Source: an uncultured candidate division Zixibacteria bacterium (GTDB taxonomy: Bacteria > Zixibacteria > MSB-5A5 > UBA10806). From it: a DNA stretch of 64,000 nucleotides. The notes beneath the pieces are model-generated. The model searched no databases. It saw only the letters and a list, made by a program, of their open reading frames with translations, and had not been told where the DNA came from. The position numbers and the translations under genes are program-made. Numbering within the stretch: position 1 is the first letter of the stretch; every line of letters begins with the position of its first letter. The DNA is taken from the NCBI GenBank assembly GCA_963801605.1, contig CAWDFP010000006.1:192879-256878 (forward strand). The letters are read 5' to 3'. Of this stretch, positions 15,114 to 20,082 are shown in pieces.

Positions 15114-16034
15114 TTATAGTAAAGACAGAATCGATTTGACGATAAAATTGGCTGGATCGAGGGGCCTGTTATTTTGATGAACCTCGTAATGCAGATGCGG
15201 CCCGGTGGAATAGCCTGTTGAACCAACTTGCCCGATTACCTCGCCCCTTGCTACCTTATGCCCGCAGGCAACCATGATCTTGCTTAAATGGCCATAAGAT
15301 GTCGTGTAGCCGTTGCCGTGATCGATAATAATCAAATTGCCCAGACCGGCTTGATAGGATGTGCTGGTCACAATACCCTCGGCCGTGGCGCAAACTGCTG
15401 TTCCCCTGGGAGCGGCTATATCGATTCCGTTATGCGGCTGGTAGGAACCGGTAAAGGGATCGGGATGGATTCCAAAGCCGCGTGTAACGAAACCCTCACA
15501 AGGGTTGATGGTAGGGGTATGATCAAGTGTATTTTTGCGAGCTTGAACAAGAGTTAAAAGATCCTCAGTTGAGGCGTTTTCAAGCTCAAGTTGACGACGG
15601 ATTTTTTCAATATCCTCTTGAACCATCCAGGTGCGTTGGCCAAGCTCCGAACCGACTAAAGGTTCGGGGTTAATATCGCCGCCGACACCAACTTCCCTGA
15701 CATCGGAGTCAATGGGAGGAAGATCAAAAACCAGGCGAATTTGCTCATCCCGCCCCACGATATTAGACATCTCTGATTTCAGGAAGGTCACTGTGGATTC
15801 AAGATCGCCGAGCTTGGCCGAGAGAACCTTATTCTCCTGTGTCAGGCTGACAAGCTCCTTTTTATCCACGGTCGATTTGATAAACCCGATGGCTGAATAT
15901 ACGCTGGCGATAATAAAAAAGGTTATAACCAGGGAGCAAACCACCAAAAAGCGCTGGCTTACTTCTCTATTTACGACCCGTCCGTTTTCAGGTGGAACGA
16001 TCAGGATTGAGTATTTCTTATTATTTGATAGCAC
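15114..16034 (-). CDS. M23/LytM-family metallopeptidase with N-terminal TM helix and coiled coil
   Basis: Motifs HNGIDIAAPRGT and GSTGYSTGPHLHYEV. Confidence 0.9.
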   Translation of the reverse strand: MLSNNKKYSILIVPPENGRVVNREVSQRFLVVCSLVITFFIIASVYSAIGFIKSTVDKKELVSLTQENKVLSAKLGDLESTVTFLKSEMSNIVGRDEQIRLVFDLPPIDSDVREVGVGGDINPEPLVGSELGQRTWMVQEDIEKIRRQLELENASTEDLLTLVQARKNTLDHTPTINPCEGFVTRGFGIHPDPFTGSYQPHNGIDIAAPRGTAVCATAEGIVTSTSYQAGLGNLIIIDHGNGYTTSYGHLSKIMVACGHKVARGEVIGQVGSTGYSTGPHLHYEVHQNNRPLDPANFIVKSILSLL

Positions 16035-16104: not shown

Positions 16105-16245
16105 TCACTTGATAAGCAGGTAATCCTTCTTCAAAATCTTCCCAACTACCTTTACAAACTTCTCCGGATGAAGGTTTTGCAGGCTATAGAGATGCCAGCA
16201 TTGTTTCTCCGGCAGTGCGAATTGCGATTTTCGTTTCTTGGCCAC
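16105..16245 (-). CDS. possible 46-aa basic protein (below the ORF-track size cutoff)
   Basis: AAAGGAGGG SD lies 4 nt before GTG 16245. Translation: VAKKRKSQFALPEKQCWHLYSLQNLHPEKFVKVVGKILKKDYLLIK. It sits just upstream of the M23 gene. Confidence 0.3.
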   Translation of the reverse strand: MAKKRKSQFALPEKQCWHLYSLQNLHPEKFVKVVGKILKKDYLLIK

Positions 16246-16533
16246 GTTCCCTCCTTTAATTTGCCCGCTTATGCATCGCGAAGACTCAGTTAAGCGGCGC
16301 GCGATTCCCCTTTAGGCTTGCCCATGAATTGGGCCATGCAAGTAAGGAAACGTGCAATTCTCATTCCCGAATTCAGATACCAGGCTCCGAGTTGAAACAC
16401 TGCGTTAATCCCTTATCAAAAAAAGATTTAGAGAACGCCTTGAAATCGAACTATGGTATTATGTCAATAGGGTGATATGGGGGAATCCCCATAGTTATAG
16501 GAAATAGCGGTTATTATTCTTTGTGATGAAGCG

Positions 16534-16800
16534 CTAAATATCAATATGATCGATTATGGCTACTATCACGGTTCGGACCGGGACTTCAGATTGGCCCACC
16601 ACAGCCATTGCTGAACGACCCTCCTGGGTAATGAGCACCAGATCACCGACTCCAGCATCGACGGAGTCGATTGCCACCACCGATTCGCCGGTCGGTGCTT
16701 GCTGCGGAGTGAGAATCGCGACATTAAGGAGGCGCTGGTTTTTATAAACCGAATGTTTAATCGTGGCTGCGATATTGCCTGTGACTTTTCCAATCAGCAT
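16534..16800 (-). CDS. EutN/CcmL/PduN-family BMC vertex (BMC-P) protein, copy 3 in transcription order
   Basis: MLIGKVTGNIAATIKH...VVAIDSVDAGVGDLVLITQEGRSA...VIVAIIDHIDI aligns over its full length to E. coli EutN. Confidence 0.9.
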   Translation of the reverse strand: MLIGKVTGNIAATIKHSVYKNQRLLNVAILTPQQAPTGESVVAIDSVDAGVGDLVLITQEGRSAMAVVGQSEVPVRTVIVAIIDHIDI

Positions 16801-16801
16801 A

Positions 16802-17068
16802 TCAGCCCAACTGATCCACTATGCCTACGATGGCAGCATCGACAGGAATCTTTTTTTCCGGTAGACAGTAGGTTGCCTCGCGAGCGGCCACCCACCAGAC
16901 AAGTTCGCCGTCGCCGGCCGAAACTGAATCAGCGGCCACAATGGGAGCGCCTTGCGGTTTACCGGTATTATCGACCGGCTCGATGATGCGCAGCTTTACT
17001 CCCAATAGCTGGGGGTCCTTGATTGTGCAGACAATGGTTCCTTTGACGCGAGCGAGTTTCATTCTCAA
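16802..17068 (-). CDS. EutN/CcmL-family BMC-P protein, copy 2
   Basis: MKLARVKGTIVCTIKD...IVAADSVSAGDGELVWW...VDAAIVGIVDQLG. Confidence 0.9.
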   Translation of the reverse strand: MRMKLARVKGTIVCTIKDPQLLGVKLRIIEPVDNTGKPQGAPIVAADSVSAGDGELVWWVAAREATYCLPEKKIPVDAAIVGIVDQLG

Positions 17069-17374
17069 TCAGCTTTTATTCATAGCGGTGTTATACGTGG
17101 TATTGCCCGAAAACTCGATATGATCAATTATCCCAATGACGATAGCATCGACCGGCGTGGTGCTCATATTCTGCGCCTGACGGGCCGAGGAGCCGCGTAC
17201 TACCAGCACCAGATCGCCTATGCCGGCATCGAGCGAATCAAGGGCCACGATTGGCGCTCCGCTTTTAGGCGCACCCGATGTATCGGCCATTTCCAGAAGC
17301 AACATTTTATGGCCACTGAGCTTGGCATCCTTGCGGGTGGCGACTACGGTTCCTTTTACTCTGGCTATTTCCAT
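17069..17374 (-). CDS. EutN/CcmL-family BMC-P protein, copy 1
   Basis: MEIARVKGTVVATRKD...IVALDSLDAGIGDLVLVVRGSSARQA...VDAIVIGIIDHIEF. Confidence 0.9.
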   Translation of the reverse strand: MEIARVKGTVVATRKDAKLSGHKMLLLEMADTSGAPKSGAPIVALDSLDAGIGDLVLVVRGSSARQAQNMSTTPVDAIVIGIIDHIEFSGNTTYNTAMNKS

Positions 17375-17397
17375 ATCAATTCCCGGTAAGGCGTGAT

Positions 17398-17622
17398 TTA
17401 AATTTTCTTTTCGGTATCGGGCGATTCATCATCAGTTGTGTTTTGATCGGATTTGTCATCCTCAAGCGGTAATTGATCGGTAGCATCAAGTCCTCTTCGT
17501 CCAAAAGCCTTGAGCAGGATATGCACTACCGCTCCCACGATCGGCAGAATTGTAAAAACAATGATGAAAATCGCCCAGAACGGGTTCTTCTTAAAAAAAT
17601 CGAGTAAACTACCATCCAGCAC
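17398..17622 (-). CDS. small single-pass membrane protein with acidic tail
   Basis: One TM helix (FWAIFIIVFTILPIVGAVVHILL) followed by a D/E-rich tail. It lies directly upstream of the BMC-P trio on the same strand. Confidence 0.45.
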   Translation of the reverse strand: MLDGSLLDFFKKNPFWAIFIIVFTILPIVGAVVHILLKAFGRRGLDATDQLPLEDDKSDQNTTDDESPDTEKKI

Positions 17623-17729: not shown

Positions 17730-18197
17730 ATGATTACAATCAGAGAGGCACGAGAGGACGAGCTGCTCAAAGCCGGTGAGCTTTGGGCGGATTTCATGCG
17801 CTTCAACGGCAAATTCGACAGCTCCTTCACTATCAAAGACAAGGCCAAGGATATCTTCTCCAGGGAGATGCTGGAAAAATATCCGGCCAAGGATTCCCGG
17901 TTGGCTGTTGCGGATGACGGCCGCGAATTGGTGGGGTTCTGTTTTTCCTACATTTCGCGCAAGCCGAAATATTTCAAGATCGAGCGTTTCGGTTTTATCG
18001 GCGATCTCTATGTCAAGCCGGAGCACCGTCGGAAAGGCGTGGGCCATGACCTGGTTCGGGATGCGTTCAACTTCTTCGCCAAGCGACGGGTAAATCAGAT
18101 CGAGCTATTGGTGGCTGTCAAAAACGAGGATTCCATCAAGTTCTGGGAGGCGCACGGCTTCAATCAGCTATTGACCTGGATGTATAAGAGGATATGA
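17730..18197 (+). CDS. GNAT-family N-acetyltransferase
   Basis: Acetyl-CoA motif region ..LYVKPEHRRKGVGHDLV.. and a C-terminal ..NEDSIKFWEAHGF. Confidence 0.85.
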   Translation: MITIREAREDELLKAGELWADFMRFNGKFDSSFTIKDKAKDIFSREMLEKYPAKDSRLAVADDGRELVGFCFSYISRKPKYFKIERFGFIGDLYVKPEHRRKGVGHDLVRDAFNFFAKRRVNQIELLVAVKNEDSIKFWEAHGFNQLLTWMYKRI

Positions 18198-18210: not shown

Positions 18211-18863
18211 GCCTCAGGATGGAAACGAAGTGACATCCTGAGGCCACTTGAATAGAATGACTCATGATTGGAAAAACTTCTACCTGGATTATTACATTCA
18301 CCATGTGACCGGTACGGTTCATCAGTGGCAACCGATCCTGTTATCCCCACAAATAACTGAACTGTATTATCAGGAATATCTTCGTCTGGCTAAATCAATA
18401 GAGATTTGGACATTAGGGTATGTTATAATGCCGGAGCATTTTCATTTGTTGATAACGGCGGATTCAGGCGATAAAATACTGCGCTTCTTACATGGATTTA
18501 GGCGATCATTGTCAGGAAAGGCCAGAAGGATGGTCGAATCAACTAATTCTGAAATAATTGAATATTGTCGATTGAATGCAGTTGATATCGCAAAATTCTA
18601 TGCTAAAACCGCAGGCAAATCGAATTTTAGGTTCTGGAAAGAAAAGCCCCGAGTATTTCCGATGAATTCTCCAGAAGCTATTCAACAAAAACTCGATTAT
18701 ATCCACATGAATCCAGTACGTAGAGGGCTTGTCGATCTGGCAGAAAACTGGCCGCATTCAAGTATTAAGGCTCACCTCTACAATGAACCGACAAGAATTC
18801 CGATTGGACTTGGGCCTCAGGATGTCGCTGAAAGAACGCTTCCATCCTGAGGCATAACCATGA
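18211..18863 (+). mobile_element. RAYT gene bracketed by REP hairpins
   Basis: GCCTCAGGATG...CATCCTGAGGC hairpins at 18211-18244 and 18824-18863 flank the Y1 transposase ORF. The second hairpin overlaps the 3' end of the ORF. Confidence 0.75.
18248..18850 (+). CDS. REP-associated tyrosine transposase (RAYT, IS200/IS605-like Y1 HUH enzyme)
   Basis: HUH motif MPEHFHLLI and a catalytic Tyr in the LDYIHMNPVRRGL context. Confidence 0.85.
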   Translation: MNRMTHDWKNFYLDYYIHHVTGTVHQWQPILLSPQITELYYQEYLRLAKSIEIWTLGYVIMPEHFHLLITADSGDKILRFLHGFRRSLSGKARRMVESTNSEIIEYCRLNAVDIAKFYAKTAGKSNFRFWKEKPRVFPMNSPEAIQQKLDYIHMNPVRRGLVDLAENWPHSSIKAHLYNEPTRIPIGLGPQDVAERTLPS

Positions 18864-20082
18864 ATACTGCCACAGGCTTCTCAGCACTTAAAAACGGGAA
18901 TATTCGATGGTCGGCGTTGGGGTCGGCCTTTTTTACGTTTGGCAATCGCGCTCTGGGGATAGTGATTGCTTTCCAAATTTATCAGATCACGCATAGCGCG
19001 CTGGCGTTAGGCTGGCTGGGTCTGATGGAGGCTATTCCCGCCATTACGGTAGCCCCGTTCGGCGGGCATGTGGCCGATAATTTCAACCGTCACCGAATTA
19101 TCATGACTACCCGGGCGATCTGCTTTATCTGCGCGCTGGCTCTGGCGATTCTATCGCGTTTTGAGGCCGGTTACATAGTAATCCTGTTTTATACACTTAT
19201 ATTCATTTTCGGATTTGCCAGAGGATTCACCGATCCCGCCATGACCGCCTTCGAGTCGCAGATTGTCCCCAAGGACCTGATTATTAATGCCTCGTCATGG
19301 TTTGGCAGTGTTTCGATAACATCATCGATACTCGGGCAGGCGGCCAGCGGGTTCATCTTTGCGGGGTTCGGCGCGACCGTATCGTATATGGTAATCGCGG
19401 GCTGTTTTATAGCGTCATTTTTTTGCGTGGCGTTCATAACGCCGGAGGCGCAGGTCAAGCCGGAGAAGGATGAGCGCGTATTCGAGAGCATCAAGATCGG
19501 ATGGAAAGCGCTGTATCATATCCAGCCGCTGTTTGCGGCGATGGCGCTCGATATGATCGCGGTGCTGTTCGGGGGGATGACGATACTGCTTCCGATTTTC
19601 GCCAACGATATCCTCAAGATCGGGGCCGGCGGGTATGGCTTGCTCAACGCTACCATCTCTGTAGGGGCGCTGGGTTCGATGCTTTTAGCGATGACCTACT
19701 CCCCGGTCATCAAGAAGGCGGGCAAGAATCTGTTGATTTCGGTGACGGCGTTTGGGGTATGTATCATTGTATTCGCGTTTTCGACGCAATGTCTGGCTTT
19801 CGGTGGTTATGCTGTTCCTCTCCGGCTTTTTCGATGGTATCAGCATGATTATCCGTCGCGCTATGACGCAGGCTGCTCTCGCCAGATCAGTTGCGCGGAC
19901 GGATTGCCGCCGCCAACTCGATCTTCATCACGGCCTCCAACGAGCTTGGCGCGTTCGAAAGCGGCATGCTTGCGGCGTTGGTGGGCACGATTCCCTGTGT
20001 CGCTCTCGGCGGTATGGTGACGCTGATTGTGGTGGCGGTTACGGCGAGATTTGCGGGGGAGCTAAGGGGGCTGGAATTGTGA
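18860..20082 (+). CDS. MFS transporter (EntS/MFS_3-like) disrupted by two frameshifts near the 3' end
   Basis: Multiple TM helices. The true reading hops across frames: 18860.. then [26 protein letters not shown] (19752 frame) then [29 protein letters not shown] (19891 frame). Confidence 0.75.

Follow-up and report, generated by a model that had tools for sequence, protein, structure and literature searches.

What are three adjoining genes for microcompartment (BMC) vertex proteins doing in a neighbourhood that contains no gene for any other shell protein? The question arises from a 64,000-nucleotide stretch of Zixibacteria DNA (hereafter the window), which corresponds to C6:192879-256878 of the genome assembly G000 (3.06 Mb in 14 contigs, 86.9% complete) and lies on its 1.92-Mb contig C6. 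The original prediction, made from this stretch, left several answers side by side: an orphan locus, a satellite locus, a link to the PVM-like metabolosomes in which such triplets occur, or pentamers serving in a non-BMC role.

Three intact vertex-protein genes in tandem

The triplet occupies positions 16534-17374 of the window on the minus strand. Its first gene, Pa (17069..17374, minus strand), encodes a 101-aa protein matching PF03319 with 100.8 bits (E 6e-29), and is followed by Pb (16802..17068, minus strand; 94.6 bits), which encodes 88 aa when read from a TTG and whose true start is likely the ATG at 17062, giving 86 aa. The last gene is Pc (16534..16800, minus strand; 88 aa, 80.3 bits). 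The genes are almost contiguous, with 0 nt between Pa and Pb (6 nt with the ATG start of Pb) and 1 nt between Pb and Pc. In the Pfam search, each of the three proteins covers positions 1-83 of the 83 positions of the PF03319 (EutN_CcmL) profile, and in NCBIfam they match the CcmL, EutN and CsoS4 models, all below the equivalog cut-offs, which makes them members of the EutN/CcmL family of no named subtype. Each resembles solved shell pentamers that include the Haliangium vertex protein 5V74, CcmL and EutN (5V74, 2QW7, 2HD3, 4JW0 and 4I7A were matched with E values from 5e-19 to 4e-9), and for Pa the best of them is 5V74, from Haliangium ochraceum (E 5e-19). The three proteins are only distantly alike, with pairwise identities of ~28-49%. 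The triplet and the 74-aa gene that precedes it are intact in two same-genus genomes, in identical gene order and with 77-91% identity (81-88% for Pa and 51-68% for the small ORF). Pa, Pb and Pc are confirmed, at the level of sequence, as genuine BMC-P (vertex) genes, and their products are predicted to form pentamers.

What the original prediction had said about the content of the window stands. The three tandem, intact EutN/CcmL genes are there, all of them full-length and, with 80.3-100.8 bits, well over the 25-bit Pfam cut-off of PF03319 in the profile-HMM check. Their neighbours are, as had been said, an M23 peptidase (306 aa; 15114..16034, minus strand; PF01551 122.6 bits) and a divergently oriented GNAT acetyltransferase (17730..18197, plus strand; PF00583 57.6 bits), the latter syntenic in both same-genus genomes. 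The window is also without an enzyme partner and without a BMC-H or BMC-T shell gene, the latter because the sole PF00936 match of the whole assembly, a BMC-H gene at C6:1736544-1736744, lies 1.5 Mb away.

The site occupied by the triplet

The gene immediately upstream of Pa (17398..17622, minus strand) encodes a small single-pass membrane protein of 74 aa, which combines one hydrophobic helix with an acidic tail and has no match in Pfam or NCBIfam. The gene ends 23 nt before Pa and is preceded by a promoter-type match, TTGACT-17-TAGATT, at 17657-17629. This short gap and this match suggest that the triplet is probably co-transcribed with the 74-aa gene from the promoter of the latter. On the other side of the triplet, upstream of the M23 gene, is a 46-aa ORF, orf46 (16105..16245, minus strand; VAKKRKSQFALPEKQCWHLYSLQNLHPEKFVKVVGKILKKDYLLIK), which has no Pfam match and is conserved in relatives. 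Upstream of the orf46-M23 pair, the intergenic alignment revealed a GGAAC-N6-TTGCA element (16353..16368, minus strand) that resembles a sigma-54 -24/-12 promoter and is conserved in all six genomes aligned, which suggests that orf46-M23 is transcribed separately from the triplet. The gene rpoN was found in 5/5 relatives and not in the G000 assembly, which is itself incomplete.

The same arrangement is found where there are no microcompartment genes at all. Four BMC-less genomes of the same family (G003, G006, G008 and G013) display a homologue of the 74-aa gene (41-47% identity), ~330 bp of intervening DNA, the 46-aa ORF and the M23 gene. More widely, orf46 directly precedes M23 in five BMC-less relatives, with 80-89% identity, and in G028, with 57%. 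The fifth BMC-less relative, G015, which belongs to a different family within the order, has orf46 and M23 and gave no match to the 74-aa gene. A search of the BMC-less relatives for remnants of BMC-P in the unoccupied stretch from the 74-aa gene to orf46 found none. In the genus of the window, the triplet stands between the 74-aa gene and the intergenic region upstream of orf46, while in G031 and G040, which belong to another family, it precedes the same orf46 and M23, with the 74-aa gene absent upstream of it. The position of the triplet is thus defined by the empty site in BMC-less relatives, and orf46 is its downstream boundary.

Since the arrangement of 74-aa gene, orf46 and M23 is kept in BMC-less relatives, the 74-aa protein is not specific to microcompartments, and we rejected it as a BMC component. 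The tie between the triplet and this upstream protein that the original prediction implied is thus not supported: the gene is found beside the same small ORF and M23 where there is no BMC. M23 was likewise rejected as a functional partner because it and the upstream orf46 are also present in BMC-less relatives. The triplet owes its position to a site flanked by the gene of the small membrane protein and by the orf46-M23 unit, neither of which is related to the organelle.

Shell and enzyme genes elsewhere in the genome

Shell genes are found in G000 at three sites of contig C6 (0.21, 1.53 and 1.74 Mb), the first being that of the triplet. The most distant (locus ii, C6 ~1.735-1.737 Mb) contains the BMC-H gene mentioned above, a gene for a 478-aa aldehyde dehydrogenase (AldDH) and one for a PLP-dependent enzyme, and has no BMC-P of its own. 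The aldehyde dehydrogenase (PF00171), which is encoded directly after BMC-H and is 47-49% identical to the AldDH of compact Zixibacteria loci, has an N-terminus, EISPENIERTVSQIMRELG, made of an amphipathic helix and then a linker, the form of an encapsulation peptide (EP). The reading frame of BMC-H is broken in G000 by one extra A (CTTAATTGAGG) and reads ALIEASDAMVKAA without it; its orthologue in the same genus has an unbroken frame and is 95% identical. Frameshifts also interrupt purD, which adjoins locus ii, and one rpiB, so assembly indel errors are common in G000.

The third site (locus iii, C6 ~1.525-1.529 Mb) encodes a phosphopentomutase (deoB), a cytidine deaminase (cdd), a fourth BMC-P that we call Pd (C6:1526620-1526868; 87 aa, PF03319 92.7 bits), DeoC/DERA and a pyrimidine nucleoside phosphorylase (pdp). 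This DeoC, the only PF01791 match in the genome, is 283 aa long with its Pfam domain starting at residue 73; its N-terminus, DELIKKIVEQVISDQ, is followed by a Cys-rich SCQGCGHC motif, and this extension can be aligned, starting at residue 1, with DERAs encoded in Anaerolineae SPU6 loci (47-54% identity). G000 has intact copies of all four BMC-P genes, of DERA and of the aldehyde dehydrogenase gene.

A number of other components were sought in this genome. No match was found to the PduL phosphotransacylase (PF06130), an absence that we did not count as evidence because several SPU types have no PduL. An SPU-type RPI was not found, both RpiB genes being canonical, with the catalytic Cys kept and no extension, and tblastn searches with the BMC-T and BMC-Tdp proteins of G002 and G014 as queries gave no match in G000, which we attribute to a gap in the assembly. 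There is a single class II aldolase (PF00596; 245 aa, with a C-terminal tail), whose gene at C6:1120697 has acpS and an aminotransferase gene for neighbours, shell genes being absent from its vicinity.

Much of what appears to be missing is found in G002, a genome of the same genus that is 96% complete. It holds equivalents of the triplet, of the BMC-H/AldDH locus and of the deoB-cdd-Pd-DERA-pdp locus, as well as a fourth locus (locus iv), so that its shell genes lie at four sites on four contigs. Locus iv encodes a 173-aa BMC-H with a C-terminal tail, a PduS-like protein (443 aa, with Complex1_51K, SLBB, 4Fe-4S and RnfC_N domains), a tandem-domain BMC-T of 183 aa and a 150-aa protein that begins MDLSEGQIKKIAEIISSRLG and has an EP-like helix at its N-terminus. 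This last protein may resemble the ACT-domain protein of FRAG4, although it has no Pfam match. Neither locus iv nor the adjacent prmC of G002 has a match in G000. However, the gene on the far side of locus iv maps to C1:2947-4215, at the very start of G000 contig C1 and directly after an inverted duplicate that resembles an assembly artefact. Because this flank is at the start of a contig, and because prmC and rpoN are also missing, we infer that the BMC-T/PduS locus is missing from G000 through an assembly gap rather than truly absent.

Co-occurrence and layouts in relatives

Among the 41 relatives of the class, PF03319 and PF00936 are present in exactly the same 20 genomes, while the other 21 have no BMC genes, and this constant association of BMC-P with BMC-H speaks against pentamers that work without a shell. 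Microcompartment genes follow two layouts in Zixibacteria, one compact and SPU3-like and the other fragmented. The compact layout (DERA, BMC-H, Pa, AldDH, BMC-T, Pb, Pc) is found in G004, of the same family, and in G014, of the same order; the DERA of G014 is an RPI-DERA fusion in which the RPI part reads IIDGAGIG, with the SPU-type Asp, and this genome also encodes a divergent double-BMC-domain protein. The dispersed layout, in which Pa-Pb-Pc are together and the other shell genes elsewhere, is that of the genus of the window (a same-genus contig belongs to Candidatus Zixiibacteriota isolate UBA10806) and of G031 and G040. In none of the three genomes of the genus are BMC-H and BMC-P adjacent.

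The relationships of the vertex proteins were addressed with a maximum-likelihood tree of 44 BMC-P sequences from loci of the Zixibacteria class and of Chloroflexota. The middle BMC-P of every other locus, whether from Zixibacteria or Anaerolineae, joins Pb in a starred clade (99/96), and the last BMC-P of these loci joins Pc in a second clade (94/89). Copies of the Pa type fall in neither clade and are not resolved as a single group; Pa shares 54-59% identity with the BMC-P that comes first in Anaerolineae SPU6 loci. The long branch of Pd contains no other sequence than its G002 counterpart. Gene order tells a similar story, since it is RPI-DERA-Pa-Pb-Pc in Bellilinea caldifistulae and either the same or DERA-Pa-BMC-H-x-Pb-Pc in other Anaerolineae. 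The Pb and Pc clades, together with an order that is fixed across phyla, point to three ancient and distinct paralogues. This orthology to SPU6 triplets suggests that Pa-Pb-Pc correspond to the 'BMC-P triplet' of Sutter et al. (2021).

Comparison with known microcompartment types

BMC-P triplets, satellite loci and the FRAG types were all defined in the same survey (Sutter et al., 2021; Nat Commun 12:3809, PMC8217296). FRAG systems have their shell genes in up to six places and always a BMC-P triplet, and their hosts are Ignavibacteriae, related phyla and many candidate phyla (Sutter et al., 2021, PMC8217296). The dispersal seen here is of this style, with several distant sites none of which has both BMC-H and BMC-P, in a host that is likewise a candidate phylum, of the FCB group. 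The correspondence extends to individual types. In FRAG7 the triplet is alone at one site, and BMC-H, PduS-T and AldDh are at another (PMC8217296, Supplementary Data 2); the lone triplet of FRAG7, and of some FRAG6, is what we see in the window. In FRAG3 DeoC adjoins BMC-P, as in locus iii, and a standard BMC-H is accompanied by one with a C-terminal extension, while FRAG4 has four BMC-P clades (PMC8217296, Supplementary Data 2), as many as the lineages Pa to Pd. The combination of a standard BMC-H, a C-terminally extended BMC-H and a PduS/BMC-T pair, common to FRAG1, FRAG3 and FRAG7, is found here when the G002 genes are included. There are also differences. Zixibacteria are in no numbered type, and the one catalogued genome, Ca. 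Zixibacteria RBG_16_53_22, is listed as 'fragmented (sat) (omitted)' in the trees (PMC8217296). Its BMC-P and BMC-T have 87 aa and 183 aa, the lengths of Pd and of the G002 BMC-T. Moreover, the HMMs of that paper gave no encapsulation peptides for FRAG, whereas DERA and AldDH have EP-like N-terminal helices here, and the fourth BMC-P is here within a complete deoxynucleoside catabolic operon.

The enzymes are closer to those of SPU systems. An extension of ~70 residues with an amphipathic helix is found on all SPU DERAs and on no other DERAs (Dwyer et al., 2024; Commun Biol 7:1562), and the DERA of locus iii (PF01791) carries an N-terminal extension of ~70 residues. Together with an AldDH (PF00171) associated with shell genes and a triplet in the same Pa-Pb-Pc order, this extended DERA is a likeness to SPU3 and SPU6; the PduS homologue and BMC-T seen in the same-genus G002 are a further likeness to SPU, and the compact locus of G014/G004 (RPI-DERA fusion, BMC-Tdp, BMC-H, Pa, AldDH, BMC-T, Pb, Pc) is one to SPU3. 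In contrast to SPU systems, no contiguous main locus was found in the 87% complete assembly, the genes being dispersed in all three genomes of the genus, and neither a BMC-Tdp nor an SPU-type RPI (PF02502, with Cys changed to Asp and an EP) was found. SPU5, for its part, is without RPI, and several SPU types are without PduL (Sutter et al., 2021; Dwyer et al., 2024). As judged from its genes, the system appears SPU-like in function and FRAG-like in layout.

With PVM systems, the likeness is in the three BMC-P paralogues. These are not PVM-specific, as triplets are present in PVM, SPU, HO, ACI and FRAG systems alike (Sutter et al., 2021, PMC8217296). The difference is in the enzyme: PVM loci are compact and encode a class II aldolase that acts on fuculose or rhamnulose phosphate, whereas here it is DERA that is linked, and no PF00596 class II aldolase is encoded with the shell genes.

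Competing explanations

The reading that best accommodates these data, and one that we consider very probable, is that the triplet supplies the vertex proteins of an SPU-like catabolic microcompartment whose genes are dispersed in this Candidatus Zixiibacteriota genome. Among the alternatives, decay deserves most attention. The BMC-H gene would then be a true pseudogene, the BMC-T/PduS locus would have been deleted and the triplet would be a still-intact relic in this strain, a scenario with which the extra A in BMC-H, the lack of a G000 match to locus iv and the repeated loss of BMC in the class (21/41 relatives have none) would all agree. It is nevertheless unlikely, because the frameshifts in purD and rpiB and the missing prmC and rpoN are the marks of an error-prone, 87% complete assembly, the place of the missing locus coincides exactly with the end of a contig, where there is an inverted-duplication artefact, and four BMC-P genes, DERA and the aldehyde dehydrogenase have all remained intact.

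Even less credence can be given to the other two alternatives. That the triplet might be a satellite of a PVM-like metabolosome for fucose or rhamnose, the attribution raised in the original prediction, is suggested by the presence of triplets in PVM loci and by the one class II aldolase of the genome with its C-terminal tail. This aldolase is, however, far from the shell genes, the enzyme linked to the shell is a DERA with the SPU-type extension, the BMC-P proteins most closely related outside the phylum are encoded in Anaerolineae SPU6 loci that include DERA, and triplets are shared by SPU, HO, ACI and FRAG systems, so that we regard this attribution as highly improbable and do not retain it. 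It is just as hard to credit that the pentamers function outside a microcompartment, for instance in partnership with M23 or with the membrane protein encoded upstream. The probable shared transcript with the 74-aa membrane protein gene and the proximity of the triplet to orf46-M23 in two separate families would be in accord with such a role, but none of the 41 relatives has BMC-P without BMC-H (the two are jointly present or absent in 41/41), relatives without BMC genes have the 74-aa gene, orf46 and M23 in the same arrangement, and orf46-M23 has its own conserved promoter-like element. Of the options first offered, the orphan locus also fails, as a BMC-H/AldDH locus and an operon with a fourth BMC-P share the 1.92-Mb contig with the triplet, and it is the satellite locus that proves right, given the presence on that same contig of a BMC-H and aldehyde dehydrogenase locus without BMC-P.

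A probable dispersed catabolic microcompartment

A dispersed SPU-like microcompartment could operate as follows. Each of the paralogues would form pentamers capping the vertices of a single shell, the facets of which would be made of the BMC-H encoded 1.5 Mb away, the tailed BMC-H of the G002 type and the BMC-T paired with a PduS homologue. Deoxynucleosides would be turned into deoxyribose-5-phosphate by the three other enzymes of locus iii (nucleoside phosphorylase, phosphopentomutase and cytidine deaminase), and this product would be cleaved into glyceraldehyde-3-phosphate and acetaldehyde, and the acetaldehyde would be converted into acetyl-CoA within the shell by enzymes that are presumably encapsulated. 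Points that run counter to this reading are the frameshift in BMC-H, the absence of the BMC-T/PduS locus, the lack of PduL and the canonical nature of both RpiB; they are partly mitigated by the other split genes, the missing prmC and rpoN, the flank at a contig end and the corresponding absences in SPU5 and other SPU types.

The fragmented layout has already been catalogued, and the triplet is an ordinary new example of it, neither an orphan nor a new system. Our findings leave general knowledge of microcompartments unchanged, and their practical consequence is one of annotation: the three genes are better described as the part of a dispersed SPU-like/FRAG microcompartment that encodes its vertex proteins than as an orphan. 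They also bear on a published guess, the digestion of deoxyribose derived from DNA, which is supported by the EP-like tags on DERA and AldDH and by the presence of Pd in a deoxynucleoside operon. It is tempting to go further and propose that the dispersed layout is old and functional rather than the outcome of decay, that Pd, the lineage-specific fourth paralogue placed between cdd and DERA, is a vertex protein coupled to cargo and that this FRAG-type organelle degrades deoxynucleosides. We put this forward tentatively; the layout occurs in two families with the triplet at the same orf46-M23 site. If true, the functionally unassigned FRAG class would gain a concrete, testable substrate.

The tree offers one more observation on the history of these loci. 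Within both the Pb and the Pc clades, the copies of the genus of the window group with those of G031/G040, while those of G004/G014 group with Chloroflexota (with moderate support), which hints that there may be two separate microcompartment lineages in the phylum.

Microcompartment genes in related genomes, and the class II aldolase of G000

A genome of the same order but from another Zixibacteria family (G014) has a compact locus resembling the sugar-phosphate utilising type SPU3 (L013 6920-8981 in G014:C6, + strand), which encodes an RPI(Asp)-DERA fusion as well as a divergent, Tdp-like protein with two BMC domains. Compact and fragmented microcompartment layouts are therefore both present within the phylum. 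In the same-genus genome G002, the gene immediately after BMC-T (L010 8738-9190 in G002:C68, - strand) encodes a 150-aa protein with no match in a Pfam search, whose N-terminus, MDLSEGQIKKIAEIISSRLG, resembles an encapsulation peptide, and which may be the counterpart of an ACT-domain protein that is known from FRAG4 and specific to BMCs. The sole class II aldolase of the studied assembly, G000 (L105 1474-2211, + strand; G000:C6:about 1120670-1121407), has a C-terminal tail of ~35 residues (…SPAEIERMLKSAGRLNLKDELL…), and its gene is adjoined by acpS and an aminotransferase gene.

Quality of the assembly

Single-base frameshifts were found in BMC-H (G000:C6:1736544-1736744), purD (L006 10513-11797) and one rpiB (G000:C6:1675576-1675990), and probably also affect the MFS transporter gene of the window (about 18860-20082). 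In addition, rpoN and prmC, present in relatives, are missing from the assembly. G000 looks like an unpolished long-read MAG, so its apparent pseudogenes are not to be trusted. At the start of contig C1 (G000:C1:1-2966), the expected place of the BMC-T/PduS locus, part of the TldD/PmbA-like genes located just after it is duplicated in inverted orientation, which is probably an assembly artefact.

Other features of the window

Directly upstream of the M23 peptidase gene lies a 46-aa ORF (16105-16245, - strand; …CWHLYSLQNLHPEKFVKVVGKILKKDYLLIK), which is 80-89% identical between Zixibacteria genera and has no match in a Pfam search. Ahead of this ORF, a GGAAC-N6-TTGCA element that looks like a sigma-54 promoter is conserved (16353-16368, - strand). 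A 200-aa ORF (18248-18850, + strand) weakly matches IS200-like Y1 transposases (17.8 bits, under the cut-off) and is possibly a gene of the REP-associated tyrosine transposase-like kind.
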